DNA from: Pseudomonadota bacterium
GTDB lineage: Bacteria > Pseudomonadota > Gammaproteobacteria > Steroidobacterales > Woeseiaceae
DNA length: 64,000 bases
Assembly (NCBI GenBank): GCA_038531945.1
Contig: JBCBBH010000001.1
Coordinates: 147,456 to 211,455 of the forward strand
Reading direction: 5' to 3'
Positions 23,389 through 36,028 of the stretch are shown here, piece after piece. Positions within the stretch are counted from its first letter, which is position 1, and every line of letters starts with the position of its first letter. A model generated the notes under the pieces. That model saw only the letters and a list, made by a program, of their open reading frames with translations, made no database searches and had not been told where the DNA came from. A program made the position numbers and the translations under genes.

Positions 23389-23805
23389 ATGGCGCGTTCG
23401 AAAAGACAAGAGACGCAGGGAAACGGCATCGCCGCACGTATTCGAACAGCTCGCGAACGTGCGCAACTCGAGCCCACTGAACTTCGAGAAGCGCTAGCGG
23501 CACTCGGGCTCGATGTTTCGAAAACGGGATTGCACCGTCTGGAAACCCAAGACCCCAAGAACCCGAATTTGTCGTTGATCGAAGCGATTGCGAGCATCAC
23601 GAACGTCTCCCCAAGCTGGATTCTGTTTGGCGAAGGCGCAACCACTAAGCCAGACGAATTCGGACAAGCCATCCGAAGTCGCGTTGTCGATACGATCGAG
23701 TTACTCGTCGGTGCACTCGATCTCACCACGCGTCAAGAATCGACAATTAACAACTGGATGAAATCCGTTCGCGAGTCTAAACCCACCAAGCTCAGAAAAC
23801 CCTGA
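23389..23805 (+). CDS. XRE/Cro-type HTH transcriptional regulator
   Basis: HTH region IAARIRTARERAQLEPTELREALAALGLDVSKTGLHRLE. Confidence 0.6.
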   Translation: MARSKRQETQGNGIAARIRTARERAQLEPTELREALAALGLDVSKTGLHRLETQDPKNPNLSLIEAIASITNVSPSWILFGEGATTKPDEFGQAIRSRVVDTIELLVGALDLTTRQESTINNWMKSVRESKPTKLRKP

Positions 23806-23849: not shown

Positions 23850-23877
23850 TTGACAGCGTTTTAAAGCTGCGTATACT
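23850..23877 (+). promoter_or_regulatory. near-consensus sigma70 promoter (TTGACA, 16-nt spacer, TATACT)
   Basis: TTGACA at 23850-23855 and TATACT at 23872-23877. The predicted TSS at about 23884 sits 2-3 nt before an ATG. Confidence 0.6.
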
Positions 23878-24122: not shown

Positions 24123-24157
24123 CCCCGGTCGGTTCGTTAGAACCACCGGGGTTTTTT
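24123..24157 (+). terminator. strong rho-independent terminator
   Basis: CCCCGGTCGGTTC-GTTA-GAACCACCGGGG hairpin followed by TTTTTT. A second 9-bp hairpin lies at 24072-24104. Confidence 0.7.
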
Positions 24158-24281
24158 ATTGCCTCCGGTTTTTGCTCTTTAACAATGTGGATTGTTCAGA
24201 CGTTGGGGGCGGAGTCTTTATGGGAAAGACTGCGATCTACAGACCCGTCGTGCGCTTATGCGCCCGCCCCAAGCGTTTTTG

Positions 24282-24358
24282 GCTAACGTAGCTCAATGTG
24301 GCAGAGCAGCTGTCTTGTAAACAGCCGGTTGTGAGTTCAACCCTCACCGTTAGCTCCA
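24282..24358 (+). tRNA. tRNA-Thr(TGT)
   Basis: Full cloverleaf folded by hand. Acceptor GCTAACG/CGTTAGC, D arm TAGCTC..GAGC, anticodon loop CTTGTAA, T loop TTCAACC, CCA encoded. Confidence 0.8.
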
Positions 24359-24363
24359 TTTAT

Positions 24364-24448
24364 GGAGAGGCAATCATTGGCGAGAATAGCCGGCTGTAAC
24401 CCGGTGGTCCTTATGGCCTTGTAGGTTCAATTCCTACCCTCTCCACCA
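24364..24448 (+). tRNA. tRNA-Tyr(GTA), long variable arm
   Basis: Acceptor GGAGAGG/CCTCTCC, anticodon loop CTGTAAC, long variable arm, T arm GTAGG-TTCAATT-CCTAC, CCA. The D arm is atypical. Confidence 0.65.
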
Positions 24449-24450
24449 AC

Positions 24451-24522
24451 GGATCGGTAGCTGAGACAGAATAGCGGCTGGCTGAAGACCAGCAGACGAT
24501 GGTGCGACTCCATCCCGATCCA
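24451..24522 (+). tRNA. non-canonical tRNA-like gene, anticodon GAA (Phe-like)
   Basis: Perfect 7-bp acceptor GGATCGG/CCGATCC. Anticodon stem-loop GCTGG-CTGAAGA-CCAGC. The D loop lacks G18G19 (AGACAGAA) and the T loop is TGCGACT, so T54-Psi55-C56 is absent. No encoded CCA. Confidence 0.45.
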
Positions 24523-24526
24523 CCGT

Positions 24527-24602
24527 TGCCGTGTAGCTCAACAGGTAGAGCAGCCGACTGTTACTCAGTTTGTTGATGGTTCAAATCCATCCATGGCAGC
24601 CA
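24527..24602 (+). tRNA. tRNA-Asn(GTT)-like
   Basis: Acceptor TGCCGTG/CATGGCA with disc G and CCA. Canonical D and T arms. Anticodon loop CTGTTAC with C37 and one C-A mismatch in the anticodon stem. Confidence 0.55.
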
Positions 24603-24606
24603 CCCC

Positions 24607-24682
24607 GGGGGATTAGCTCAACGGGTAGAGCACCTCGTTTGCAACGAAAAGGCTCTCGGTTCAAATCCGAGATCCTCCACCA
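24607..24682 (+). tRNA. tRNA-Ala(TGC)-like (G3:U70 present)
   Basis: Acceptor GGGGGAT/ATCCTCC with a G3-U70 wobble. Canonical D and T arms. Anticodon loop TTTGCAA, but the anticodon stem has two C-A mismatches at its base. Confidence 0.5.
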
Positions 24683-25152
24683 AATTTCGAGTCATCGGTA
24701 TTACCGAGGCTCTTGATAGCGGCCTGGCGCTGCTAACCGTCGGTAACGGCGGGAAAGGAACGCACCCATGGCGTTTCGCCGAGACTTGAGTTTCGGTCAC
24801 TCCAGGCAAGTTCGGCCTCCGGTTGTTCTCGGCACTGTCGGGAATAGCGGCCAAGCGATACGCGGAAGTAGCGTGACTGACGCACCGGCAATGTCGGGAA
24901 TGCGGGTCCGTGAAAGAACACGTGGTGGTGCAACCCGCGACACCAATATCGTCAACCGTGAGAGGTAACGAATAGTGCAGTTCAGTGCGAGCCTTGCAGG
25001 CAAGTGCGACTGTGCAGAAGGCGAGGGTTCTGGTGGTCAGCCAGCGTCCTTTTCATCGGTCAAGTAGCCGGCAGGTGAACGACATTCGGCGTGTTGTATT
25101 TCGTCGCCCAAAAGGTGGCGAAGCGACTGAGGCGCGCACGTCGCAGTGGGAT

Positions 25153-25223
25153 TGTGATTTAGCTCAATGGCAGAGCGATTGCCCAGCAAGCAATAGGTGC
25201 AGGTTCGACTCCTGTGTTCACGA
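25153..25223 (+). tRNA. non-canonical tRNA-like gene (anticodon loop CCAGCAA, C33, A34-G35-C36)
   Basis: Canonical D arm (TAGCTCAATGGCAGAGC) and T arm (GCAGG-TTCGACT-CCTGT). Perfect anticodon stem ATTGC/GCAAT. The loop carries C33 and A34. The acceptor has one mismatch. No CCA. Confidence 0.35.
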
Positions 25224-25579
25224 CTAACGTCAAACGCAAAGACGCGCCTCGGTACGCCGTCGAAAATGGCTTAAGGCCGGAGTCTACGGACAATCCGGCG
25301 GTTGGATCAGCCGCAAGTTGATCGGACCTTGGCAGCAAGCCGCACGGTCGGGAAGCCCCCGTTTGGAGCCCGCAAGGCTCACGGTACGCAAGCTGCTGAC
25401 TAGACGTGTACTACAAGTGCATCGCCGCACTTCAAAAAAGGCAGTCATGGTCTTCGACTGTCGAGTTGGCTTCGGCCAATCGGCAGTGGACAAGCACGCA
25501 ACGAGTGTCACGCACGGCATTCGGTACTCGTGCGAACGGAGGACTACAAAGCGCCTAGTCTCAGCGCTTTTCCTTTTCC

Positions 25580-25655
25580 GCCACGATAGCTCAATCGGAA
25601 GAGCATCGGATTGTCGATCCGAAAGATGTCGGTTCGAGTCCGATCCGTGGCGCCA
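25580..25655 (+). tRNA. tRNA-Asp(GTC)
   Basis: Cloverleaf folds cleanly. Anticodon loop TTGTCGA, T loop TTCGAGT, CCA. One A-C mismatch at 7-66. Confidence 0.8.
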
Positions 25656-25661
25656 TTCTTC

Positions 25662-25737
25662 GATCCTGTGGGCTAACGGTTAGGCCACCAGACTTTCAAT
25701 CTGGGGATTGCGAGTTCGAGTCTCGCCAGGATCACCA
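25662..25737 (+). tRNA. tRNA-Glu(TTC)
   Basis: Acceptor GATCCTG/CAGGATC, anticodon loop CTTTCAA, T arm GCGAG-TTCGAGT-CTCGC, CCA. Confidence 0.8.
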
Positions 25738-25739
25738 AA

Positions 25740-25866
25740 TGACCAGTAGCTCAGCGGGTAGAGCACACGCCTGATATGCGTGAGGTCGCACGTTCAACGC
25801 CAGGCAGGATGCCTCAGTGCCGCGTAGCACAGGACGTGCGAGAGCGGCCCGTCGCCTGGTCAACCA
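25740..25866 (+). tRNA. split/interrupted tRNA-Ile(GAT)-like gene (about 68-nt insertion replacing the T arm)
   Basis: The 5' half is canonical: acceptor TGACCAG, D arm, and anticodon arm CACGC-CTGATAT-GCGTG plus variable AGGTC. The matching 3' acceptor CTGGTCA-A-CCA is found only at 25856-25866. The intervening 25788-25855 forms three hairpins rather than a T arm. Confidence 0.35.
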
Positions 25867-25872
25867 AACACT

Positions 25873-25949
25873 CTGCGTGTAGCCAAACTGGATAAGGCCC
25901 CTGACTTCGAATCAGGAGATTGAGAGTTCGAGTCCCTCCGCGCAGGCCA
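25873..25949 (+). tRNA. tRNA-Arg(TCG)
   Basis: Acceptor CTGCGTG/CGCGCAG, anticodon loop CTTCGAA, T loop TTCGAGT, CCA. One mismatch in the T stem. Confidence 0.7.
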
Positions 25950-25955
25950 AACACT

Positions 25956-26033
25956 CTGGGAGTAGCTCAGCCTGGTCAGAGCACTTGCCTTGGAAGCAAG
26001 GGGTCGCTGGTTCAAGTCCAGCCTTCCAGACCA
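25956..26033 (+). tRNA. tRNA-Pro(TGG)
   Basis: Acceptor CTGGGAG/CTTCCAG, anticodon stem-loop CTTGC-CTTGGAA-GCAAG, T arm GCTGG-TTCAAGT-CCAGC, CCA. Confidence 0.8.
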
Positions 26034-26058
26034 ACGTTTCGAAACCGGAGCGCTACAA

Positions 26059-26146
26059 GGAGACTCGCATGGCTGGCGTGCTTATCGGTCTTGAAAACCG
26101 TGATGTCCTGACGGGCGTGGGGGTTCGATCCCCACAGTCTCCGCCA
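26059..26146 (+). tRNA. tRNA-Ser(TGA), long variable arm
   Basis: Acceptor GGAGACT/AGTCTCC, anticodon CGGT-CTTGAAA-ACCG, long variable arm, T loop TTCGATC, CCA. Position 8 is C and the D arm is atypical. Confidence 0.65.
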
Positions 26147-26152
26147 ATCGAT

Positions 26153-26230
26153 GGTGTATCTAGCTTAATCGGCAAAAGCTCCGGGCCGTGACCCCGGGAG
26201 ATATCGGTTCGAGTCCGATGATTCACCCCA
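26153..26230 (+). tRNA. tRNA-His(GTG) with G-1 and C73, anticodon loop CCGTGAC (C33)
   Basis: G-1 is present and the discriminator is C, the His identity set. Anticodon stem CCGGG/CCCGG. The loop has C at position 33 instead of the near-universal U. One T-T mismatch in the acceptor. Confidence 0.6.
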
Positions 26231-26236
26231 ATTCAT

Positions 26237-26328
26237 GGAGATGTGGCCGAGTGGCTTAAGGCACTCGTTTGCTAAACGAGAGAGGGCTCGAAAGTCCTTC
26301 CCAGGTTCGAATCCTGGCATCTCCGCCA
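26237..26328 (+). tRNA. tRNA-Ser(GCT), long variable arm
   Basis: Acceptor GGAGATG/CATCTCC, D arm TGGCCGAGTGGCTTAAGGCA, anticodon CTCGT-TTGCTAA-ACGAG, long variable arm, T loop TTCGAAT, CCA. Confidence 0.8.
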
Positions 26329-26337
26329 TTTGTCTAT

Positions 26338-26408
26338 TGAGAGGGAGGCGGTCTCAGACGAGAGTCATAACCTCGTTGTCGTCGGTTCGAATCCGACCCT
26401 CTCGACCA
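26338..26408 (+). tRNA. tRNA-like gene with CAT anticodon and truncated D arm (71 nt)
   Basis: Acceptor TGAGAGG/CCTCTCG with A and CCA. T arm GTCGG-TTCGAAT-CCGAC. Anticodon loop GTCATAA. Only about 14 nt are available for the D region. Confidence 0.4.
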
Positions 26409-26477
26409 TTACTTTCTAGCTCAGCCGGCATAACGTCGCTCTCGCAGAGAGGCAGTCGGCGAGAAAATCGAACAACT

Positions 26478-26555
26478 ACGGCTATAGCTCAGCGGAAAAA
26501 GAGCGCGACCGTGCGAAGGTCGAGGACGGAGGTTCAAATCCTTCTAGCCGTGCCA
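26478..26555 (+). tRNA. tRNA-Arg(GCG)
   Basis: Perfect acceptor ACGGCTA/TAGCCGT, D arm TAGCTC..GAGC, anticodon CGACC-GTGCGAA-GGTCG, T loop TTCAAAT, CCA. Confidence 0.65.
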
Positions 26556-26561
26556 AACCAT

Positions 26562-26636
26562 TCAGCGATCGTCTAACCGGTAGGACACCAGACTTTGACT
26601 CTGGAAGTAGAGGTTCGATTCCTCTTCGCTGAGCCA
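26562..26636 (+). tRNA. tRNA-Gln(TTG)
   Basis: Perfect acceptor TCAGCGA/TCGCTGA, anticodon CCAGA-CTTTGAC-TCTGG, T arm AGAGG-TTCGATT-CCTCT, CCA. Confidence 0.8.
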
Positions 26637-26641
26637 ACAAC

Positions 26642-26715
26642 AGGTCGCTCTTCTAACGGCAAGATAACGGATTCCAAACCCGTGAATCGGTGTTCGACTC
26701 ACCGGCGGCCTGCCA
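26642..26715 (+). tRNA. tRNA-Trp(CCA)
   Basis: Acceptor AGGTCGC/GCGGCCT, anticodon loop TTCCAAA, T arm CGGTG-TTCGACT-CACCG, CCA. Confidence 0.75.
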
Positions 26716-26721
26716 ACAACT

Positions 26722-26796
26722 GATGCTGTGGTCAAATGGCAAAGGCGCGAGGTTGCAACCCTCGAGATGACAGTTCAACTCTGTCCAGCATCTCCA
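26722..26796 (+). tRNA. tRNA-Cys(GCA)
   Basis: Perfect acceptor GATGCTG/CAGCATC, anticodon CGAGG-TTGCAAC-CCTCG, T arm GACAG-TTCAACT-CTGTC, CCA. Confidence 0.8.
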
Positions 26797-26885
26797 CGGC
26801 CAGACACAGCGAGTAGTTCAAACATCGGACGCTCCGTCGACGAATCGATTTATGAGATAGCGGCCAGAAAAGGCTTTCTTGAAGC

Positions 26886-29228
26886 TTACCGCACACCCAA
26901 TGGCGTGAACTCGTATCGCTCAGAAACTGCGCATCGCTGCAATGATCGCGTGACGACGACGCCGGACGATATGAAATTCACCGTGATGTCGCGATGGTCG
27001 ATTGCACCCTGAAACGATCCTTGTGCGGACTCAATGATCAGTACCTGCTTGGAATCATCGTAGTGCAATTGGGTGACTCGACGTTCACCGCGGCGCCACG
27101 CCTCAGTACGGTCATCGTCTTCGATCAGACGAAAGTGACCATTGGCTCCGGTGTACACGTCTATCACTAACTTCGACTTGTCGATAAAGGCAGTGGTGAG
27201 TGCGTACTCTCGTTTCGGAATGATGGCACCAGCACGGACGTAAAGCGGCATGGCGTTGTTCTCTTGGGTAAGTACTTGCTCGCCATCGAGAAGGTCGCCA
27301 CCACCGAGTGGATACCAGCCACCGTTTGGAAGCCAGACGCTGGTGTGGCTTTGATCGACAACCGGTGCAACAAGAATGCTGGGGCCGAACATAAACTGAA
27401 GATCGCGCTTCCAAGCAGATTCACTGTCAGGAAACTCGAGTAACATCGGCCTTGCGATAGGCAGGCCGGTGTCGGCAGCCTCATGCGCCACCGAATACAG
27501 ATAGGGCATCAACTCATAACGCAGTCGCCCATAGCGGTGTGCTGCAGCAACGCTCGATTCACTGCGATCAAGAGGCCAGCGCGACTGACCCATACCGTGC
27601 GGTTTCCAAATGGGTGCGAACGCACCAAGCGCCATCGCCCACCGTTGATATAGCGATTCGTCGGGACCGCTGCCTTGGTCCCAATCGAAAAAGCCGCCGG
27701 CATCATGCCCCCAAAACGGGAAGCCAGCGAGACCGGCCAATTGCATCGCACGGATCTGCGACGCCATATCGTCGTCGTTGGGTTTAATATCACCGCTCCA
27801 TAGCGTCGCATAGCGTTGGGCGCCCGCGGTCATGCCGCGCACCCATACGAAAGGTCGATTGATGATCGGTGACCGATCCCAACCCTCTGCCACGAGCGCT
27901 TTGGCGATCAAAAAAAACCAGTAGTTCCGCATCTCGGCTGAACTGCGCCCATTGGCAAGCACGATGTCTTTCGGTGCCGCGCCCTGCTCGTCGAACTCGT
28001 CGATCCAAAGCGCATCACCCGGGAAGTTGAGAGCGGGATTTAGTGATTTCTCGTAAAACACCTGCCAGAACCAGCGACGAAAGTCCGGGTTCGTCAAATC
28101 CGGCGCACTTTCCGGAAACTCGATATTGTCGATCGTCGGAAGATTAAACGACGAAGTCCAGCCGTCCGAGAAACGTGCGATGCAGCGGTTGAAGTCGATC
28201 GTTGAGACCAACCCATTGCCTTCCAGCCATGTTGCCCAGGCGACAGGATCTGGGTAGCGAGTTCGGTCCCATTCGATTTTCGACTCACAACGCTTGCCGC
28301 CCGCCGCGCGCCACCGGTTATCGTTGACCACGTGATCCAACGGCAGTCCCGCAATACGGTGCGATTGGATCTTGTCTTTCCACCACGCTTCATCGGAAGG
28401 CGTATCAGAGTTGTGATCGTGACCCTTGTCCGACAGCTGCAGGCCGAACATCGACTTCATTGGCAGGCGTGGACGGCCCGTCAATTGTGTATAGCGATCG
28501 ACTACTGCCTTCAACGAAGGTCCCGCGATGAACACATAGTCCATCTGTCCGGTAAACCCGTGGGTGTCAATCGCGATGCTGTAGTCCCCATCCGCATTCA
28601 ATGCAAATCGGTTAGGGAACGTACTGTTGAGAAAGACGCCGTAGCCGCGACTCGATAGATAAAAGGGAACGATTAGCGGTGCCTGCTCGACGGGTTCGCT
28701 GCCATAGTTGCGCTCTACGATGGAACCCGAAAGATCTAGCCGATCCGCGCGCGCGAAATAGCCGTGGCCCAGACCGGTGAAGCGCTCGCCGTCCACGGGC
28801 ACGAATCGAACACCGCGTTCGTCGCCTGCTCGGTACGAGCCCATTTTTTCTTGCAGAATCGGTGTGGTGCTTTGTGCGGTCTCGAATGAGACTGCTAGCG
28901 TTTCGCGATCGATCACCACTTTGAGTTCACTCGATTGCAGTACCACTGTATCGCTGTTAGTTGCGACATCAACACTGCTCGTCCAATCGTGTGACTCGAT
29001 CATCTCGTAATAGCTATCCGGCAGAAACGCCTCGCCGTCGTGGGCGGTTTGCAGACGTACCATTGCGTCGCCGAACCACAATATTCTGAGGGTGCGCGAA
29101 CCATCTGGCGACTCGACATAGAACGCACGAGAGTCGGTATGGAACTGGGACGCTGCACAGCCGCACAGGACTAAGACGGCAGTGGCGAGCAGGCTGAGTT
29201 TCACTTGTGTTTTTGTCGGCACGTTCAT
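26886..29228 (-). CDS. glycoside hydrolase family 31 (alpha-glucosidase/alpha-xylosidase-like) lipoprotein
   Basis: GH31-like core with a candidate nucleophile region (ALWIDEFDE). Start re-set to ATG 29228 (MNVPTKTQ...LVLCGCAAS lipobox). The track's 39-aa extension overlaps the neighbouring gene. Confidence 0.7.
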   Translation of the reverse strand: MNVPTKTQVKLSLLATAVLVLCGCAASQFHTDSRAFYVESPDGSRTLRILWFGDAMVRLQTAHDGEAFLPDSYYEMIESHDWTSSVDVATNSDTVVLQSSELKVVIDRETLAVSFETAQSTTPILQEKMGSYRAGDERGVRFVPVDGERFTGLGHGYFARADRLDLSGSIVERNYGSEPVEQAPLIVPFYLSSRGYGVFLNSTFPNRFALNADGDYSIAIDTHGFTGQMDYVFIAGPSLKAVVDRYTQLTGRPRLPMKSMFGLQLSDKGHDHNSDTPSDEAWWKDKIQSHRIAGLPLDHVVNDNRWRAAGGKRCESKIEWDRTRYPDPVAWATWLEGNGLVSTIDFNRCIARFSDGWTSSFNLPTIDNIEFPESAPDLTNPDFRRWFWQVFYEKSLNPALNFPGDALWIDEFDEQGAAPKDIVLANGRSSAEMRNYWFFLIAKALVAEGWDRSPIINRPFVWVRGMTAGAQRYATLWSGDIKPNDDDMASQIRAMQLAGLAGFPFWGHDAGGFFDWDQGSGPDESLYQRWAMALGAFAPIWKPHGMGQSRWPLDRSESSVAAAHRYGRLRYELMPYLYSVAHEAADTGLPIARPMLLEFPDSESAWKRDLQFMFGPSILVAPVVDQSHTSVWLPNGGWYPLGGGDLLDGEQVLTQENNAMPLYVRAGAIIPKREYALTTAFIDKSKLVIDVYTGANGHFRLIEDDDRTEAWRRGERRVTQLHYDDSKQVLIIESAQGSFQGAIDHRDITVNFISSGVVVTRSLQRCAVSERYEFTPLGVR

Positions 29229-29242
29229 ACTCAGGTGTTCGG

Positions 29243-29974
29243 CTAGTTCGAGAAACCCCAAAGACCAATGTTGTCGAATTGAACACGCTTCGGCAGTTGC
29301 AGCAGGAAAAGCACCGCAGCGGCAAGGTCTTCGGTTTGCAACCAACCCGGTGTCATCTCATCCGCAACTTTGGGCTTTGGCACTTGCACAAGACCTGGGC
29401 ACAAGCTGTGAACCTTGATGCCGAATTCGCGGACTTCTTCCTGCAAGGCGAGTCCGAAACCAAGAACGCCGAACTTCGCGGCGCAGTAAGGCGCTGCCTC
29501 GGCGTAACCATTCTTGGCCGCTTGCGACGCGATATTGATGATGAAGCCGCTCCGGTTCGCCTGCATGGTCGGCAGCACCGCCTGACTCATAAGGAACGTA
29601 CCTTTGGTACAGGTCTCAAGTACGAGATCCCAGTTGGCCTCGGGACAATCGATGACCTTATCGGTCACACCGAGTCCCGAATTGTTGATCAAGAAATCAA
29701 CGCCGCGGTATTGAGCGAGTGTCTCTTCGACGATCGCTTGAACCTGCGCTTTGACACGCACGTCGGCAGCGACTCCGATGCAGTTCGACTCAAACTCATC
29801 GTTGAGTTCCGCCGCAGTTTCGGTGAGCAGGTCTGCACGTCGCGATGTGATCACCACGTCGACACCGCTCGCCATCAGGCCCCGAGTAATCGCCAGGCCG
29901 ATACCCGAGGCACCACCCGTGACAATGGCCGTTTTCCCTCGCAAATCGCTTGAGGAAGCAGTCAGTTCATTCAT
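29243..29974 (-). CDS. SDR-family oxidoreductase
   Basis: KTAIVTGGASGIGLAI Rossmann motif. Start re-set to the internal ATG 29974. The track start 30094 would run into the tRNA-Lys gene. Confidence 0.75.
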   Translation of the reverse strand: MNELTASSSDLRGKTAIVTGGASGIGLAITRGLMASGVDVVITSRRADLLTETAAELNDEFESNCIGVAADVRVKAQVQAIVEETLAQYRGVDFLINNSGLGVTDKVIDCPEANWDLVLETCTKGTFLMSQAVLPTMQANRSGFIINIASQAAKNGYAEAAPYCAAKFGVLGFGLALQEEVREFGIKVHSLCPGLVQVPKPKVADEMTPGWLQTEDLAAAVLFLLQLPKRVQFDNIGLWGFSN

Positions 29975-30013
29975 GGCTCGGCAGTATAGATCAGGTCTGC
30001 TTGATGCATCATC

Positions 30014-30089
30014 GAATCGATAGCTCAATCGGCAGAGCACCCGGCTCTTACCCGGGAGGTTGTGAGGTCGGAACTCACTCGATTCACCA
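30014..30089 (+). tRNA. tRNA-Lys(CTT), T loop GTCGGAA (non-canonical T54)
   Basis: Perfect acceptor GAATCGA/TCGATTC with A and CCA. Anticodon CCCGG-CTCTTAC-CCGGG. T stem GTGAG/CTCAC, but the loop starts with G rather than T. Confidence 0.6.
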
Positions 30090-30095
30090 AACAAT

Positions 30096-30170
30096 AGCCC
30101 GATAGCTCAGCAGTAGAGCACCGCTCTCACAAAGCGGAGGTCGGTGGTGCAACCCCACCTCGGGCGACCA
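30096..30170 (+). tRNA. non-canonical tRNA-like gene, anticodon CAC (Val-like)
   Basis: Anticodon CCGCT-CTCACAA-AGCGG. The D loop AGCAGTA lacks GG and the T loop is TGCAACC, the same co-variation as in the Phe-like gene at 24451. A1-G72 mismatch. CCA encoded. Confidence 0.45.
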
Positions 30171-30307
30171 CTTTTGACGCAATTCCGTCATACCGAGGTC
30201 TGAATTGTCGCCAAGTTCTGCGGACCGGGTTCTTTGAATTCCCGACTGGCGCGCAACGCTAACCATCGCCGCGCGTGTACCGAACGAAACGGCATTCTCA
30301 CCGCCAC

Positions 30308-30384
30308 TGGAAATTAGCTCAGATGGGTAGAGCATACGACTCATAATCGTACGGTCGCAGGTTCAACTCCTGCATTTCCCACCA
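30308..30384 (+). tRNA. tRNA-Met or tRNA-Ile2 (CAT)
   Basis: Anticodon TACGA-CTCATAA-TCGTA. Canonical D and T arms. The 1-72 pair is a T-C mismatch. CCA. Confidence 0.7.
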
Positions 30385-30681
30385 CTGGCTTCCACAGCCA
30401 TCCTGGCGAAAAGAACGAGAGTTCTGCGGTTCGAATCCGCCCTTGCAGAGAGATTCTGCACCACCGCGACTGTGTCCAGCGAACGGCAATGCGAGCTTGC
30501 TCGCGTTGTCTGACGCAGCAACCGGTTCGCCGGTCGCCGTGCTGGTCCGTACGCCGAACCGATTCCCGAAACGACGCCGGACTGTGTGCGCTCGCACTCG
30601 CGTCGTGTGTCGAATCGCGTCTCGGTTCCGCCTACGCACCACCGGCTGCCCGCGCACGGGTTGTGGACACAGCCGCACCCA

Positions 30682-31269
30682 TCAAAAATCCGCGCCTGAC
30701 TTCAGCGTAAACACCACAGAAATCTCAAGTTGGTTGTTGCGCTTCTCGGGCGTTGCGAGAAGCGCGAATTGACCAAGTGCTTGAGAGCGAGCGATGTCCC
30801 GTTCAGAAAGCAGAGAGTCGTCGGCAAGAAAGACCTTCGGCGCCCATTGGTTTCCGTACTCTTCGGATACCAATGTGAAGTGAATATGGGCGGCCTCGCG
30901 GCCGAGATGGTCCGCAGCCGGACGGATGGTTTGGAACACAAACTCACCGCATTCGTCTGTGATCGCCCAACCTTGCAATCGCCACATCGTGAGCTCGCGA
31001 TCGTTTCGGCCCAGTTCGAAACCTTCAGCGTCGCGATGATAGGAATGCACGACGACGTTGGGTGCGACTTCGCCAACAGGCGTAAAGACTGTCCCGCGCA
31101 CTACAAGCGGCTCACCCGGCTCATCGGGCGAACCAATCCGCGACACCGATGACAATGGAACACTCTTTGCCGCAATCGCTTCGTGCCAAGCGCGAAGCCA
31201 GGCTGGATCAACGTCGCCGGCAACAGAAGCGCCGCTCCATAGCGCTGCGCAAAGAACCCAATATTTCAT
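30682..31269 (-). CDS. secreted intradiol ring-cleavage dioxygenase-like protein
   Basis: Signal peptide. AAHIHF iron-ligand-like motif. Size and pattern resemble small protocatechuate-dioxygenase-like lipoproteins. Confidence 0.4.
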   Translation of the reverse strand: MKYWVLCAALWSGASVAGDVDPAWLRAWHEAIAAKSVPLSSVSRIGSPDEPGEPLVVRGTVFTPVGEVAPNVVVHSYHRDAEGFELGRNDRELTMWRLQGWAITDECGEFVFQTIRPAADHLGREAAHIHFTLVSEEYGNQWAPKVFLADDSLLSERDIARSQALGQFALLATPEKRNNQLEISVVFTLKSGADF

Positions 31270-31357
31270 CCACGACCCTCAGTTGGACTTCACTTCCTGT
31301 TAGATAGTAGATCGGACTGAGAGGTTTAACTCACTGACCAACAAAGGAGGTGCTTTG

Positions 31358-32644
31358 ATGGCTCACTCATCGAGCCAGGCCAGTCGCGTAGCCGACTGGG
31401 TACGAAATCGCAACGAGCAAGCACTGGCTTTGGCGCGTCGCGAGAACAAACGCATGTTTCCGACTACAGAAACATACAACGATAACAACCAAGGAGAACG
31501 CAACATGTTTTACATGAAGTTCAACGTGCGCAAGCACGAGCGTGCACTCCTGTTCCGCGACGGCGATTTCGTCAAGTTCCTTGAGCCTGGCGTGCACCGT
31601 TTCGTGACGGTTTTGCACAAGTACACGGTCGAATCGTTCGACATCACGGTACCGCTATTCGCACACCGGCTGCAGGACTTCCTGGTGGAGTCCTACGCAG
31701 AGGATGTCGCTCGCTACTTCGACGTAGTGACGACCGATGCCAATGAGATCGCCATCGTCTACCACGACGAGCGTGTCACGCTGATCATGGCTCCAGCCAC
31801 GCGCCATCTCTTCACGAAGGGTGTGCGCAAGATTCGCGTCGAGCGCTTTGCGATCACCGGTGATGTCGACGTCGACGCCCGTTTGGCCAAGCGCCTGTTG
31901 ACGGGCGACGACCGAACGTTGCAGGCGATCGCTGAGAAGGCGATCTACGCGCGCATCGTGTCGGACGGCCACGTGGGCTTGCTCTACGTGGATGGTGAAT
32001 TGAAGCGCTCACTGGCACCGGGTTACCACGCGTTTTTCGCGGTGGAGCGCGATGTCGAGGTGAAGTGCTTCGATACGCGTGTGCAGACGCTGGAAGTCTC
32101 CGGCCAGGAAATCCTGACCAAGGACAAGGTGGCTGTGCGCATCAACCTGACTGCAACCTACCAGTACGCCGATGTGGAAGCGGCTGTGCGTGCTGCGAAG
32201 GACCCGCTGGATCACCTGTACAAGGAAGTGCAGTTCGGTTTGCGCGGTGCGGTCGGTACCCGAACGCTGGATGCTTTGCTTGAAGACAAGACGGTCATCG
32301 ACACGTCGGTGGCACGTCATCTCGATGAGCACTTCGAAGCAATGGGTATCACGGTGAAGTCCGTTGGCGTGAAGGACATCATCCTGCCGGGTGACATGAA
32401 GATGTTGCTGGGTCAGGTGGTGGAGGCCGAAAAGGCCGCGCAGGCCAACGTGATTCGCCGTCGCGAAGAGACCAACGCGACCCGTTCACTTCTGAACACC
32501 GCGAAGGTCATGGAGACGAACGCTGTGGCGTTGCGTCTCAAGGAGCTCGAGACGCTCGAGAAGATCACCGACAAGATCGGCAACATCTCGGTTTACGGCG
32601 GCCTCGATGCCGTGTTGAACGACCTGGTTCGCATGAAGCAGTGA
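31358..32644 (+). CDS. SPFH/Band-7 (stomatin/flotillin-like) domain protein
   Basis: Band-7 core (ILTKDKVAVRINLTATYQ...KDIILPGDMK...EAEKAAQANVIRRREETNA). ATG 31358 has an AGGAGG RBS. A second possible start, ATG 31505, also has an AGGAG RBS. Confidence 0.8.
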   Translation: MAHSSSQASRVADWVRNRNEQALALARRENKRMFPTTETYNDNNQGERNMFYMKFNVRKHERALLFRDGDFVKFLEPGVHRFVTVLHKYTVESFDITVPLFAHRLQDFLVESYAEDVARYFDVVTTDANEIAIVYHDERVTLIMAPATRHLFTKGVRKIRVERFAITGDVDVDARLAKRLLTGDDRTLQAIAEKAIYARIVSDGHVGLLYVDGELKRSLAPGYHAFFAVERDVEVKCFDTRVQTLEVSGQEILTKDKVAVRINLTATYQYADVEAAVRAAKDPLDHLYKEVQFGLRGAVGTRTLDALLEDKTVIDTSVARHLDEHFEAMGITVKSVGVKDIILPGDMKMLLGQVVEAEKAAQANVIRRREETNATRSLLNTAKVMETNAVALRLKELETLEKITDKIGNISVYGGLDAVLNDLVRMKQ

Positions 32645-32728
32645 GTTCGACCAACCGGCGAGAGGTCAGGTGCAAGGCCTGGCCTCTCGCCATCTATTCG
32701 CCTTCGGTGTACCGAAGGCAATCCCAAC

Positions 32729-32804
32729 GGTGAATGTAGCTTAATGGCAAAGCCCCAGGCCGTGACCCTGGAAGATGCCGGTTCGACCCCGGTGGTTCAC
32801 CCCA
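32729..32804 (+). tRNA. tRNA-His(GTG) with G-1/C73, anticodon loop CCGTGAC (C33), second copy
   Basis: G-1 plus discriminator C. Anticodon stem CCAGG/CCTGG with the same C33-containing loop as the His gene at 26153. One G-G mismatch at 7-66. Confidence 0.55.
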
Positions 32805-32810
32805 AACACT

Positions 32811-32888
32811 AGCCGTCTGAAGGGAATTGGCATACCTACCTGTCTTAGAAACAGGTGCTTCTCGGTTCGACTCCGAGGGCGGCTACCA
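32811..32888 (+). tRNA. Leu-anticodon (TAG) tRNA with short variable arm (class-I-like)
   Basis: Leu-type D loop (GGAATTGGCA) and A73. Perfect anticodon stem CCTGT/ACAGG with loop CTTAGAA. It has a 5-nt variable loop in place of the long arm that all bacterial tRNA-Leu normally carry. Confidence 0.55.
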
Positions 32889-32943
32889 ATTTTTCTGGGC
32901 AGAGCTGACTGGGCGTCTTCAGGGCGTGGTACCAATGGCGTGA

Positions 32944-34032
32944 ATGCCTACTCCTTGGGTTCACTCTCGTCTTTATTCGTGGCCGATACGCACGCACAAT
33001 CAGGTAGGGTGCATTGAGTCGAGCATCGGAATTAGCAGACGGCGAATAGTTGTGACCACACGAACTCGAAACGTTCTCCTGTTCGGCCTACTCGTTGTGG
33101 TCGGAATCGCAATGGTCAAGATACGAAATCCGAGCGTCGACCTCGCTGTTGATCGACAAGATATCGGCAGCACTGTATCCGCGGAGGAAATCCCAAAACC
33201 AGGGGCGATAACAACTCTGGCCGACGCGCCCGGCGATGCGTTCGCTGATGCCGCAGCTTCAGCGGTCGCTACCGTCCCTGACGAGACCTGCGTCCGAGCC
33301 AAGGACGTGGAGATGCTGCTCTTGAGTTCCAGTGAGCCGCAGCGAATTCAAAACCTGATGTCCTACGGAGAGTGGTTCAACGACTACGCCGGCGTCGATG
33401 AAGCAACACTCGAATCACTTGCTGATCAACTCGACACCAAGGCGATGATCGTCCTTGGGACTCAAGCCGAGTTTCGTGCCATCGGTAGGGACCCTGCACT
33501 GGCGGTCGAGAAACTCAACGGAAGTGCCGTGAGAGAGAATGTCCAAAACAATGCCTTTGACGCTTGGTTGCGAGACCGAGAACGTATCGATGCCCATCGA
33601 AAAGATGTCGAAGCAGCTCGCGACTGGTATTACCAAGCTGCACTCCTTGGCGATCTCGGCGCTCTCCCTTTTCTTGGTGACGTACAGCTGGCGTTAGAAG
33701 AAACACCCGTAAGTCTCGGTTGGATTAGCCAAGAGGACTTCGATCAACTCCCTCGGCAGGCGCAAAACCCTAATGAGGTGCGTGGCGCTTATGGTGTGGC
33801 GGCTACTCGAATCGCTCCGAACGCCGGTACTGGATACGCTGGTTTACTACAGGGAATCTACGAGATATCGCTTACGCATAAGCCGTTCGCGGACGCGTTA
33901 GCGGAACAGTACAAACGCGACCGCGCCGATCTCGGCCTGCCACCGCTTGAGGTTCCACCGGCTGAGATTTCTCTGGATGAGTTAAGAGACCTTGCGGCAC
34001 GGCTCTGTCCTGGCGAAGAAGATTTCCTCTGA
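32944..34032 (+). CDS. hypothetical membrane-anchored protein
   Basis: N-terminal TM segment (VLLFGLLVVVGIAMV) and an acidic/helical C-terminal domain. No recognisable family. The start is uncertain. Confidence 0.4.
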   Translation: MPTPWVHSRLYSWPIRTHNQVGCIESSIGISRRRIVVTTRTRNVLLFGLLVVVGIAMVKIRNPSVDLAVDRQDIGSTVSAEEIPKPGAITTLADAPGDAFADAAASAVATVPDETCVRAKDVEMLLLSSSEPQRIQNLMSYGEWFNDYAGVDEATLESLADQLDTKAMIVLGTQAEFRAIGRDPALAVEKLNGSAVRENVQNNAFDAWLRDRERIDAHRKDVEAARDWYYQAALLGDLGALPFLGDVQLALEETPVSLGWISQEDFDQLPRQAQNPNEVRGAYGVAATRIAPNAGTGYAGLLQGIYEISLTHKPFADALAEQYKRDRADLGLPPLEVPPAEISLDELRDLAARLCPGEEDFL

Positions 34033-34090
34033 CCAACAGTCTTGGTCAACACCATGATCGAGCTTGGCTCGACAAATGGCCTCAACCAAA

Positions 34091-34167
34091 GCGCAGCTGA
34101 CGGGAAAGGCATACCTGGATAGCTCAAACCTATTCGTTTCCCCGTTCGAATCGGGGGCTGCGCACCA
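34091..34167 (+). tRNA. Leu-anticodon (CAA) tRNA-like gene with short variable arm, 45 nt upstream of the HNH-RtcB operon
   Basis: Perfect acceptor GCGCAGC/GCTGCGC with A73 and CCA. T arm CCCCG-TTCGAAT-CGGGG. Anticodon GATAG-CTCAAAC-CTATT. The D region TGACGGGAAAGGCATACCT is paralogous to that of the TAG Leu-like gene. 5-nt variable loop. Confidence 0.5.
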
Positions 34168-34211
34168 ACTCCCTCTGAACAATCCACATTGTTGAAGTCG
34201 TGAGAAGAACG

Positions 34212-34799
34212 ATGATGGAACAAATTTTGAAACTCGATGTGGGCGGAAGACCGATTGGTTGGATCACCCAGGAACAAGGCGCGCTGCTGTATTGCAGAGA
34301 TCAAGTCGCGTGGGAAGCCGGCGACCAGACGATCGTGTTACGCGGTGGATTCTCGCGTGTGACGGGACACCGTTCGATGTTGACGATCAACAGTATCGTC
34401 GCGACCACGAGCATCGACCAGTCGGCAGACAACTGGGCCGGCGGAACGGCGCTGACGAACGCGGCACTGTTCCGACGGGATCAGTACCTGTGCTTGTACT
34501 GCGGTGGATCGTTCAGCCGATCCGCGTTGACGCGAGATCACATCGTTCCGGTTTCGCGCGGCGGTGAGGACTGCTGGGAAAACGTTGTGACCGCGTGTCG
34601 CGCCTGCAATCAGCGGAAGGCGGATTTTCTGCTAGCCGAGTGCGGCATGTCGTTGCTGGCAACACCGTACGTCCCTAACCGAGCCGAAGGATTGATTTTG
34701 AATAATCGGCGAATTCTTTGCGACCAGATGGCGTTTCTGCAAACGCGCGTCGGTCCGCAAAGTCGAGTCGCTAGGACGAACAAGAGAGAAGAACAATGA
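34212..34799 (+). CDS. HNH endonuclease
   Basis: CLYCGG...TRDHIVPVSRGGEDCWENVVTACRACNQRK is a classic HNH/HNN zinc-finger nuclease motif. Its stop overlaps the rtcB start (ATGA). The track start is GTG 34200 and the ATG is at 34212. Confidence 0.8.
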   Translation: MMEQILKLDVGGRPIGWITQEQGALLYCRDQVAWEAGDQTIVLRGGFSRVTGHRSMLTINSIVATTSIDQSADNWAGGTALTNAALFRRDQYLCLYCGGSFSRSALTRDHIVPVSRGGEDCWENVVTACRACNQRKADFLLAECGMSLLATPYVPNRAEGLILNNRRILCDQMAFLQTRVGPQSRVARTNKREEQ

Positions 34800-36028
34800 A
34801 CAACGTAACGGAAAACTACGACGTCCTGTTTGATGGGGGCGTACCTGTAAAGCTGTGGACGCGTGGCGTCCCAACAGACGAACGCGCACTGGATCAACTG
34901 CGTAAGGCAGCCTCGATGCCGTTTATCTACAAGCACATCGCAGTCATGCCGGATATGCACGTCGGTAAGGGCTCGACCATTGGTTCGGTGATCCCAACCA
35001 AGGGCGCAATCATTCCTGCCGCGGTCGGTGTGGATATCGGTTGCGGCATGATGGCCGTGCGCACGAGTCTTAACGCGTCTGACCTGCCCGACAACCTGTT
35101 CGCGATTCGTTCGGCAATTGAAGCGGCGGTGCCGCACGGTCGGTCGAGCGGTCGCGGGAAGCGGGATAAGGGCTCGTGGGGCGAAGCGCCCGAGGCATCG
35201 TTGGATGCCTGGGGTAGCGGTCTCGCCGCGCGGTTCTCGCAACTGGTAGAGAAGCACCCTCGCCTTGCGAAGACGAACAACTTGAACCACCTGGGAACGC
35301 TCGGAACAGGCAACCACTTCGTTGAAGTGTGCCTGGACGAAGCGCAATCGGTTTGGTTCATGTTGCACTCGGGTTCGCGCGGTGTCGGTAACGCGATCGG
35401 GATGCACTTCATTGCGCTGGCTCAGCGTGAGATGGAGCGCTTCTTCATCCACCTGCCGGATCGGGATCTCGCCTACCTTGCCGAAGGCACCGAACACTTC
35501 GACGACTACGTCGAAGCGGTCGGTTGGGCGCAGGACTTCGCGCTGGCAAATCGTCGCGTGATGATGCTGCACACGATCCGTGCGGTGCGCGATGCGCTTG
35601 CTCGCCACTTCGATGCGGAACTTGAGGCCGTGAACTGTCACCACAACTACGTGGAGCGGGAGCATCACTTCGGTGAGAACGTACTCGTGACGCGCAAGGG
35701 TGCGGTCAAGGCAACGAAGGGTACGATGGGCATTATCCCAGGCTCGATGGGCGCCAAGTCGTTCATTGTGCGCGGACTCGGAAACGAGGAGAGCTTCTGC
35801 TCTTGTTCGCACGGTGCCGGTCGCATCATGTCGCGGACGCAAGCGAAGAAGGCGGTGTCGTTGGCCGAGCACAAGGCGGCGGTGGCGCACGTCGAATGCC
35901 GGGTCGATGCCGATGTTGTGGATGAAACGCCATCCGCGTACAAGGACATCGATGCGGTGATGGCGGCCCAGGATGATCTCGTTGAGATCGTCCACACGCT
36001 ACGCCAGGTCGTTTGCGTGAAGGGCTAA
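34796..36028 (+). CDS. rtcB: RNA-splicing ligase RtcB (3'-phosphate/5'-OH RNA ligase)
   Basis: RtcB family motifs include ...HNYVEREHHFG... and ...CSCSHGAGRIMSR. About 410 aa. Confidence 0.9.
   Translation: MNNVTENYDVLFDGGVPVKLWTRGVPTDERALDQLRKAASMPFIYKHIAVMPDMHVGKGSTIGSVIPTKGAIIPAAVGVDIGCGMMAVRTSLNASDLPDNLFAIRSAIEAAVPHGRSSGRGKRDKGSWGEAPEASLDAWGSGLAARFSQLVEKHPRLAKTNNLNHLGTLGTGNHFVEVCLDEAQSVWFMLHSGSRGVGNAIGMHFIALAQREMERFFIHLPDRDLAYLAEGTEHFDDYVEAVGWAQDFALANRRVMMLHTIRAVRDALARHFDAELEAVNCHHNYVEREHHFGENVLVTRKGAVKATKGTMGIIPGSMGAKSFIVRGLGNEESFCSCSHGAGRIMSRTQAKKAVSLAEHKAAVAHVECRVDADVVDETPSAYKDIDAVMAAQDDLVEIVHTLRQVVCVKG

Follow-up and report, generated by a model that had tools for sequence, protein, structure and literature searches.

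A tRNA-Ile(GAU) gene with a 50-nt insert in its T loop, in a tRNA island with GOLLD RNA and RtcB

In a stretch of 64,000 nucleotides (nt) from contig JBCBBH010000001.1 of the Woeseiaceae metagenome-assembled genome (MAG) GCA_038531945.1, hereafter called the window, a tRNA-Ile(GAU) gene at 25740-25866 (+) is interrupted by a 50-nt insert in its T loop. Its acceptor, D and anticodon arms, read directly from the sequence, are intact. The element lies between tRNA-Glu(TTC) and tRNA-Arg(TCG) in a dense array of tRNA genes that also includes a GOLLD RNA and ends at a gene for the RNA ligase RtcB. On balance, we think it likely that the element is a disrupted, probably non-functional gene in a decaying, horizontally acquired array.

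An insert in the T loop of tRNA-Ile(GAU)

The insert was delimited by comparison with close relatives (three independent assemblies), which were reached via the protein neighbours of the window array. In one of these, L088 (GCA_039814565.1), an independent MAG from a different sample, the element is located at L088:11672-11797 and differs from the window allele at two sites: T25825 is replaced with G, inside a hairpin loop, and C25853 is missing. Both differences are in or beside the insert and none is in the tRNA body. In L088, GCGGCC, CGTGC and CTGGTCA-ACCA follow one another directly, so that the exact complement of GCACG adjoins the acceptor strand, as in ordinary tRNAs. Because CGTGC of L088 directly abuts the acceptor strand, a single 50-nt insert accounts for the whole structure. 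In silico deletion of the 50 nt from the L088 allele restored a standard tRNA-Ile, recognized by ARAGORN as a 76-nt tRNA-Ile(gat) with a perfect cloverleaf; the same deletion from the window allele left 77 nt with a broken T stem. At the level of sequence, these comparisons show that the ancestral state was a normal tRNA-Ile gene, into whose T loop, after TTCAACG, one 50-nt block was inserted with all four stems spared. The extra C25853 in the window allele is best read as a second, later lesion.

An earlier note, made from the window alone, had proposed an interrupted tRNA-Ile(GAT) gene. This is supported by the perfect 76-nt tRNA-Ile obtained from L088, and the gene otherwise has the place of a normal member in the array. 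The canonical 5' acceptor strand, D arm, anticodon arm and variable loop that it described can be read directly from the sequence. As it also stated, CTGGTCA (25856-25862) is the exact complement of the 5' acceptor strand and is followed by A-CCA (25863-25866), and the AACACT spacer is common to other array members, being found also after tRNA-Arg(TCG) and the second tRNA-His; CCAAACACT is present in the window at 25864, 25947 and 32802. The proposal of a 68-nt insert replacing the T arm had to be corrected, since GCACG-TTCAACG (25788-25799) is present and the insert proper, according to L088, is 50 nt long (25800-25849). The segment AGGTCGCACGTTCAA can be aligned to the variable loop, T-stem 5' strand and T loop of the array tRNA-Met and of canonical phage tRNA-Ile genes. 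A circularly permuted or split gene was ruled out by the colinear order of the parts: 5' acceptor strand, D arm, anticodon arm, T-stem 5' strand, insert, T-stem 3' strand, 3' acceptor strand and CCA. An engineered decoy is unsupported: the element occurs in environmental MAGs from different samples, in a natural tRNA island associated with GOLLD and RtcB.

The register of the insert is ambiguous by up to 3 nt, with GCC at both ends. It contains a hairpin, AGGCA-GGA-TGCCT (25802-25814), and a nested GCCGC...GCGGC stem (25819-25848), and its segment ACGTGCGA (25834-25841) is complementary to TCGCACGT (25786-25793). The ENA contig L085 is 100% identical to the window from 25485 to 25829, the left insert junction included, and departs from it at 25830, within the insert. 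The final 44 nt of L085 are 36% GC, belong to a contig of 1.9x coverage and found no match; this tail is probably chimeric and was set aside as an alternative allele. Two full alleles were compared, those of the window and L088.

As it stands, the element does not have the 5-bp T stem and 7-nt T loop directly abutting the 3' acceptor strand that characterize a canonical tRNA. ARAGORN made no call, relaxed and intron settings included, and the Rfam tRNA model (RF00005) gave 28.8 bits against a cut-off of 29, for 25740-25807 only and via a forced poor T arm. Gene finders silently omit such interrupted genes, so the array seems to have no tRNA-Ile. The window was scanned with Rfam models at the gathering threshold, and 25650-25950 and L088:11510-11810 at E <= 10. 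The latter setting yielded matches to tRNA, a spurious one to YrlA and a weak minus-strand one to Bacillaceae-1 (E 0.08-1.7), and no others; the insert matched no Rfam family in either allele, and there was no match to Intron_gpI, to group II introns or to self-cleaving ribozymes, of which the small ones covered by models are HDV-like/theta, hammerhead, twister, pistol and hatchet, with pseudoknots beyond covariance-model scoring, so that a very divergent ribozyme could escape such models.

Several specific candidates were rejected. A group I intron does not agree with an insert of 50 nt, located in the T loop rather than the anticodon loop, that Intron_gpI failed to match. The YrlA (Y RNA) match reached 28.8 bits against the RF02553 cut-off of 69 and straddles the end of tRNA-Glu and the start of tRNA-Ile, and is spurious; no TROVE (Ro60) protein was found among the window open reading frames (ORFs) scanned. 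The two 3-nt bulges and 4-bp helix of a bulge-helix-bulge (BHB) intron fit no junction register upon manual, non-exhaustive inspection of junctions and folds, and no splicing endonuclease (EndA/Sen) was seen among the window ORFs scanned. Manual inspection allows an HDV-like pseudoknot (GCACGT/ACGTGC with CCAGGC/GCCTGG), which competes with the acceptor stem and was dropped as unsupported. The term intervening sequence, used in the earlier note, holds only as a description of the DNA; as a statement about RNA it is opposed by the failure to match group I, group II or ribozyme models, the misfit to a BHB and the extra T-stem lesion.

Folding was predicted for both alleles. The minimum free energy (MFE) of the whole element, -52.4 kcal/mol, is no better than that of shuffled sequences (z = -1.71; 11/200 shuffles equally good). 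With the acceptor, D and anticodon arms enforced, the window allele folded at -50.0 kcal/mol and formed a 10-bp helix in which 25786-95, a segment running from the last bases of the variable loop through the T-stem 5' strand to the TTC of the T loop, pairs with 25832-41 inside the insert. For the L088 allele, a canonical T stem with a free T loop was obtained at -48.0 kcal/mol versus an MFE of -51.7, the insert then folding as two self-contained hairpins; in the folding ensemble, the internal 10-bp helix accounts for ~0.9 and the canonical T stem for ~0.004 (L088 allele). Three hairpins had been described earlier; they stand as predictions only, from a fold no better than shuffles, and the third one (GCG/CGC, 25844-55) is lost in L088.

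We looked for other copies of the insert. No second copy was detected in the window (<= 3 mismatches; blastn-short) or in ~100 kb of close relatives, and pattern scans of IMG/VR and searches of GTDB genomes gave no match. In BLAST searches of INPHARED phages and PLSDB plasmids, the tRNA exons alone were matched and the insert was not; JGI metagenomes provided one partial relative (L085) and three ordinary tRNA-Ile genes. The insert is without terminal inverted repeats, and the window shows no enrichment of its hairpin motif GGCA-N-TGCC. Derivation by self-duplication was rejected: the direct and inverted k-mers that the insert shares with the tRNA body did not exceed those of dinucleotide shuffles (p 0.15-0.7), and the best local alignments of the insert to array tRNAs were within the null.

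Covariance model R1, applied to 80 phage RtcB loci, detected canonical tRNAs only; its two long matches were explained as an ordinary tRNA-Lys and a YrlA-like module of phage contig L017 (IMGVR_UViG_3300044960_000921). In L017:8210-11251, tandem YrlA-like modules (Rfam 43.1 and 27.1 bits, below the cut-off) are positioned directly upstream of a TROVE/Ro60-vWA gene and RtcB, and superficially resemble permuted or split tRNA genes. Taken as a true example of a YrlA/Ro60/RtcB module, this region looks unlike the tRNA-Ile element.

Table 1. Parts of the tRNA-Ile(GAU) element and features of the surrounding island (window coordinates)
Feature	Position	Strand	Basis
5' acceptor strand TGACCAG, U1-A72 first pair	25740-25746	+	perfect pairing with 25856-25862; model R1 alignment = acceptor stem
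D arm GCTC-AGCGGGTA-GAGC	25749-25764	+	sequence; Rfam tRNA alignment
Anticodon arm CACGC-CTGATAT-GCGTG	25766-25782	+	sequence; Rfam tRNA alignment
Anticodon GAT	25773-25775	+	ARAGORN = tRNA-Ile(gat) after insert deletion
Variable loop AGGTC	25783-25787	+	aligned with variable loop of canonical tRNA-Ile/Met genes
T-stem 5' strand GCACG and 7-nt T loop TTCAACG	25788-25799	+	aligned to AGGTCGCAGGTTCAA of canonical phage tRNA-Ile, array tRNA-Met
50-nt insert in T loop, between tRNA positions 60/61	25800-25849	+	delimited by L088 comparison
T-stem 3' strand, damaged: CGTCGC, extra C at 25853 (L088: CGTGC)	25850-25855	+	pairwise alignment, cmsearch, ARAGORN drawing
3' acceptor strand CTGGTCA, discriminator A, encoded CCA	25856-25866	+	inverted 7-mer TGACCAG/CTGGTCA
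AACACT spacer ahead of tRNA-Arg(TCG)	25867-25872	+	identical spacer after tRNA-Arg(TCG), second tRNA-His
tRNA array	24282-34167	+	ARAGORN
GOLLD RNA (RF02032)	~24683-25567	+	Rfam match 25084-25567
tRNA-Ala(AGC) in GOLLD linker	25153-25224		
tRNA-Glu(TTC), homologue of L088:11523-11669	25662-25737		
tRNA-like remnant 1	26338-26408		
tRNA-like remnant 2	26409-26477		
GH31 and SDR genes	26886-30094	-	
HNH endonuclease gene	34200-34799	+	
RtcB gene	34796-36028	+	PF01139, E = 6e-127

The tRNA island and its variation among strains

The array comprises 23 tRNAs, all on the + strand with encoded CCA, at ~2.3 per kb, and falls within the definition of a long array (>= 20 tRNA genes, density >= 2 per kb; PMC4758250). 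Its tRNAs span all amino acids except Ile and Gly. The GOLLD RNA was identified by a match that is full-length on the 416-position model and scores 131.6 bits (E = 7e-36), below the 150-bit gathering score; its linker contains a tRNA-Ala. The upstream 470 nt of GOLLD, identical in L088 and ~90% identical in L085, are probably a variable 5' domain. Occurrence of GOLLD near tRNA islands, with linker tRNAs, has been described previously (PMC12286853). At the downstream end of the island, an HNH endonuclease gene overlaps the start of the RtcB gene, ~9 kb downstream of the tRNA-Ile element. Among IMG/VR phage contigs, genes for relatives of this RtcB with 60-67% identity are common, and many lie beside tRNA arrays. 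Glycoside hydrolase family 31 (GH31) and short-chain dehydrogenase/reductase (SDR) genes are embedded in the island on the minus strand.

Between tRNA-Ser(GCT) and tRNA-Arg(GCG) there are two tRNA-like remnants, both uncalled and both identical in L088. The first has an acceptor stem (TGAGAGG/CCTCTCG-ACCA), a good T arm (GTCGG-TTCGAAT-CCGAC) and a CAT anticodon in a loose anticodon arm, with no proper D arm; the second retains TAGCTCAGCCGG alone.

Upstream of the array there is a helix-turn-helix (HTH) regulator gene (23389-23805) and, after it, a sigma-70 promoter close to the consensus, TTGACA-16-TATACT (23850-23877); a terminator-like hairpin with a T run (~24125-24165) is located just upstream of the first array tRNA. 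Judged from its sequence, this region may be a regulated leader for the array. The window as a whole is part of a Gram-negative chromosome, with genes for a TonB-dependent receptor, alginate and heparinase-type lyases and a TRAP transporter, and its nearest named relatives are Woeseiaceae MAGs.

The array is 99.3% identical between the window and L088 (2.8 kb), whereas the flanking genes are ~95.7% identical. The island is absent beside the orthologous CCXG gene in relatives of 72-78% identity, and no array was found in the GH31 and CCXG neighbourhoods of relatives of 70-78% identity. This pattern indicates that the island was recently acquired or recently exchanged. L085:1-1418 (ENA ERZ1740070) is a mosaic, ~90% identical to the window up to 25484 and then 100% to 25829; it is without the tRNA-Phe and tRNA-Asn genes, and the anticodon loop of its GOLLD-embedded tRNA is CTCCAAA, versus CCAGCAA in the window.

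A second interrupted gene was found in L088. Its tRNA-Glu(TTC) carries a 71-nt hairpin-forming insert in the anticodon, with the junctions CTT[T]/GATTCGC and CTCGGT/TCAA, that is missing from the window and L085. The gene was called by ARAGORN -i as tRNA-Glu i(34,71) and scored 50.8 bits with the Rfam tRNA model. No other copy of the 71-nt block was found in the window, close relatives, IMG/VR, or the phage and plasmid collections. Similarity between the 50-nt and 71-nt inserts is weak: they have the short motifs GATGCC and GTGCC-T-C in common and no common junction motif. With the gene losses in L085 and the tRNA-Glu insert in L088, the array is in flux in this lineage. Long tRNA arrays in general are reported to undergo horizontal transfer, with frequent insertion, duplication and deletion of sequence; pseudogenes among their members and a linkage to rtcB have also been described (PMC8421152, PMC4758250).

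A disrupted gene and the alternatives

As the comparison of alleles shows, one 50-nt insertion entered the T loop in an ancestor of the window strain and its sister strains, with the four stems kept, and in the window allele a further 1-nt insertion (C25853) damaged the T-stem 3' strand. We propose that the array transcript would still be cut at the flanking tRNAs, which would release a tRNA-like RNA of ~127 nt. According to the predicted fold, the 10-bp helix of this RNA would take up the T-stem 5' strand together with the first three bases of the T loop, so that no normal T loop or elbow would form. Such an RNA is expected to be no substrate for normal use by RNase P, EF-Tu or the ribosome, which would make the gene a pseudogene, or a crippled copy at most, within a non-essential, decaying array. 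The insert may go back to a rare event, either a small insertion or a template switch; the array seems prone to such events, given the independent 71-nt insert in the neighbouring tRNA-Glu of the sister strain. The context of decay is supported by the remnants at 26338-26477, the losses in L085, the disruption of tRNA-Glu in L088 and the absence of the island in relatives.

Some points weigh against a disrupted gene. The insertion leaves every stem untouched and lies at the one site of the T loop, after position 58-60, at which T-loop motifs of other RNAs tolerate extra nucleotides structurally. The insert of the L088 allele forms a two-hairpin module of its own, and the cloverleaf-compatible fold lies 2.4-3.7 kcal/mol above the MFE in a calculation that leaves out tertiary contacts. 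No other tRNA-Ile is found in the array, so that selection on the array as a set would call for a functional Ile member. RtcB, which joins 2',3'-cyclic phosphate and 5'-OH ends, is encoded 9 kb downstream. That one small array has received two independent insertions in tRNA loops hints that the process is directed and not one of random decay. Finally, two full alleles are too few to judge conservation by.

The insert may have originated as a small non-autonomous DNA element of the MITE (miniature inverted-repeat transposable element), REP (repetitive extragenic palindromic) or REPIN type, an origin that we regard as possible yet doubtful and that would be compatible with a pseudogene. The 71-nt block is present in one strain and absent from another while their arrays are 99.3% identical; both blocks are GC-rich and hairpin-forming, share GATGCC and GTGCC-T-C, and are flanked by short direct repeats (GCC...GCC and TT...TT). 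An element of this kind is disfavoured by the want of a second copy in the 64-kb window, ~100 kb of relatives, IMG/VR, and the phage and plasmid collections, and by the lack of terminal inverted repeats and of enrichment of GGCA-N-TGCC in the window.

It is unlikely that the element encodes a functional, unspliced tRNA-like RNA with a two-hairpin elbow domain that is kept for a task outside translation, such as serving as bait for a tRNA-targeting nuclease or acting together with GOLLD or some other factor of the island. The site of the insert is one at which extra strands are tolerated in T-loop motifs, and the element retains the four stems, G53-C61 and the T-loop TTCAA, along with normal array spacing and the encoded CCA. 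It is kept in two or three strains, and the authors of an Anabaena study raised sponge or decoy roles for array tRNAs (PMC8421152). However, the only two allele differences both strike the insert region and one of them breaks a stem; the predicted fold favours a helix that abolishes the T loop and is no better than shuffles; and no homologue was found beyond the species-level lineage in the collections searched. The extra C25853, with the allele differences confined to the insert and its borders, weighs against this reading and also against the other functional one, removal of the insert from RNA.

According to the latter, the 50-nt module (and the 71-nt module in L088) would be excised from the precursor by an endonuclease or by self-cleavage, the exon ends being held by the T stem or the anticodon stem and rejoined by the RtcB of the island. 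We consider this quite improbable. In its favour, precise deletion of the 50 nt produces a perfect tRNA-Ile in L088, and precise deletion of the 71 nt from L088 produces the tRNA-Glu of the window; both inserts are located in loops closed by intact stems and each folds alone; and RtcB is encoded within the island with an overlapping HNH gene. In addition, RtcB of Anabaena is co-regulated with long tRNA arrays (PMC8421152), and in animals SOS splicing excises hairpin-forming inserts in an RtcB-dependent manner (PMC12779559). On the other hand, no ribozyme or intron family was matched at E <= 10, no BHB could be drawn at either junction pair by inspection, and the two inserts are weakly similar and share no junction motif. 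The window ORFs scanned included no splicing endonuclease, and no such enzyme for tRNA is known from bacteria. In the window allele, even a spliced product would have a defective T stem because of the extra C, evidence against purifying selection on that product. The presence of RtcB beside tRNA arrays is already accounted for by tRNA repair.

More improbable still is that the 50-nt and 71-nt blocks represent an undescribed class of short hairpin inserts that colonize tRNA loops in GOLLD/RtcB-associated tRNA islands and are cut out by an endonuclease, the RNA ends being ligated by RtcB. Such protein-dependent tRNA splicing in a bacterium would be analogous to archaeal tRNA splicing and to animal SOS splicing. 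Protein-dependent tRNA splicing is not known from bacteria, and the biological substrates of bacterial RtcB are poorly defined. Removal of the inserts from RNA would be of far greater importance than decay of the gene. The two tRNA-Ile alleles, with intact and damaged T stems, and the presence/absence polymorphism in tRNA-Glu constitute a directly testable system.

An artefact of assembly or consensus, with the insert wholly or partly a chimeric join, is very improbable: the source is a MAG, L085 diverges inside the insert at 25830 and C25853 could be a consensus error, but the whole element with both junctions is present in the independent MAG L088 from another sample, the left junction is present in the third assembly, the 3' acceptor strand matches the 5' strand perfectly, and L085, with its matchless tail of 36% GC in a 1.9x contig, is itself the likelier chimera.

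Comparison with known systems

Bacterial group I introns are known in tRNA-Leu UAA, tRNA-fMet, tRNA-Ile CAU and tRNA-Arg CCU; they are located in the anticodon loop, exceed ~200 nt and have a P1-P9 core. Like these genes, the tRNA-Ile element is colinear and interrupted in a loop, and removal of the insert restores a perfect tRNA. Unlike them, its insert is 50 nt long, located in the T loop and unmatched by Intron_gpI at E <= 10.

Non-canonical introns of archaeal tRNAs, found in the T arm among other places, are cut by EndA at a BHB and joined by RtcB. The element resembles them in having a short block outside the anticodon loop and an RtcB ligase encoded nearby, whereas its host is bacterial, no BHB was recognized at the junctions by inspection, no endonuclease was seen and CCA is encoded in the gene. 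In bacterial 23S rRNA, intervening sequences (IVSs) are likewise strain-variable, hairpin-forming blocks of tens of nt at the helix or loop tip of a stable RNA gene. RNase III excises rRNA IVSs at long duplexes and the pieces are not rejoined; here the stems are of 4-5 bp, and a tRNA cut in the T loop or the anticodon would need religation.

The locus is similar to the GOLLD tRNA islands of phages, prophages and Mycobacterium, with a linker tRNA, a tRNA island and HNH nearby (PMC12286853, PMC6582537). It is unlike them in that no comparable interrupted tRNA came up in the literature on GOLLD islands that was searched, and that GOLLD here scores below the 150-bit cut-off.

A close parallel to the favoured reading, a disrupted gene, is provided by the pseudogenes of long arrays such as the trn operon of Anabaena sp. 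PCC 7120. Those arrays also have >20 dense tRNA genes on one strand, an island-like distribution and rtcB nearby, and they undergo frequent insertions and deletions, with some members non-functional (PMC8421152, PMC4758250). Unlike the Anabaena array, the present one belongs to a MAG resembling a marine gammaproteobacterium and contains a GOLLD RNA. The lesion of the tRNA-Ile gene is a clean 50-nt T-loop insertion with all stems intact, as distinct from truncation or point decay. If disrupted, it is a neat example of the decay of an acquired array, a clean loop insertion followed by a stem lesion, in an island with GOLLD and RtcB. tRNA arrays are already known to contain pseudogenes; as a form of such decay, a neat T-loop insert whose removal yields a perfect tRNA is unusual.

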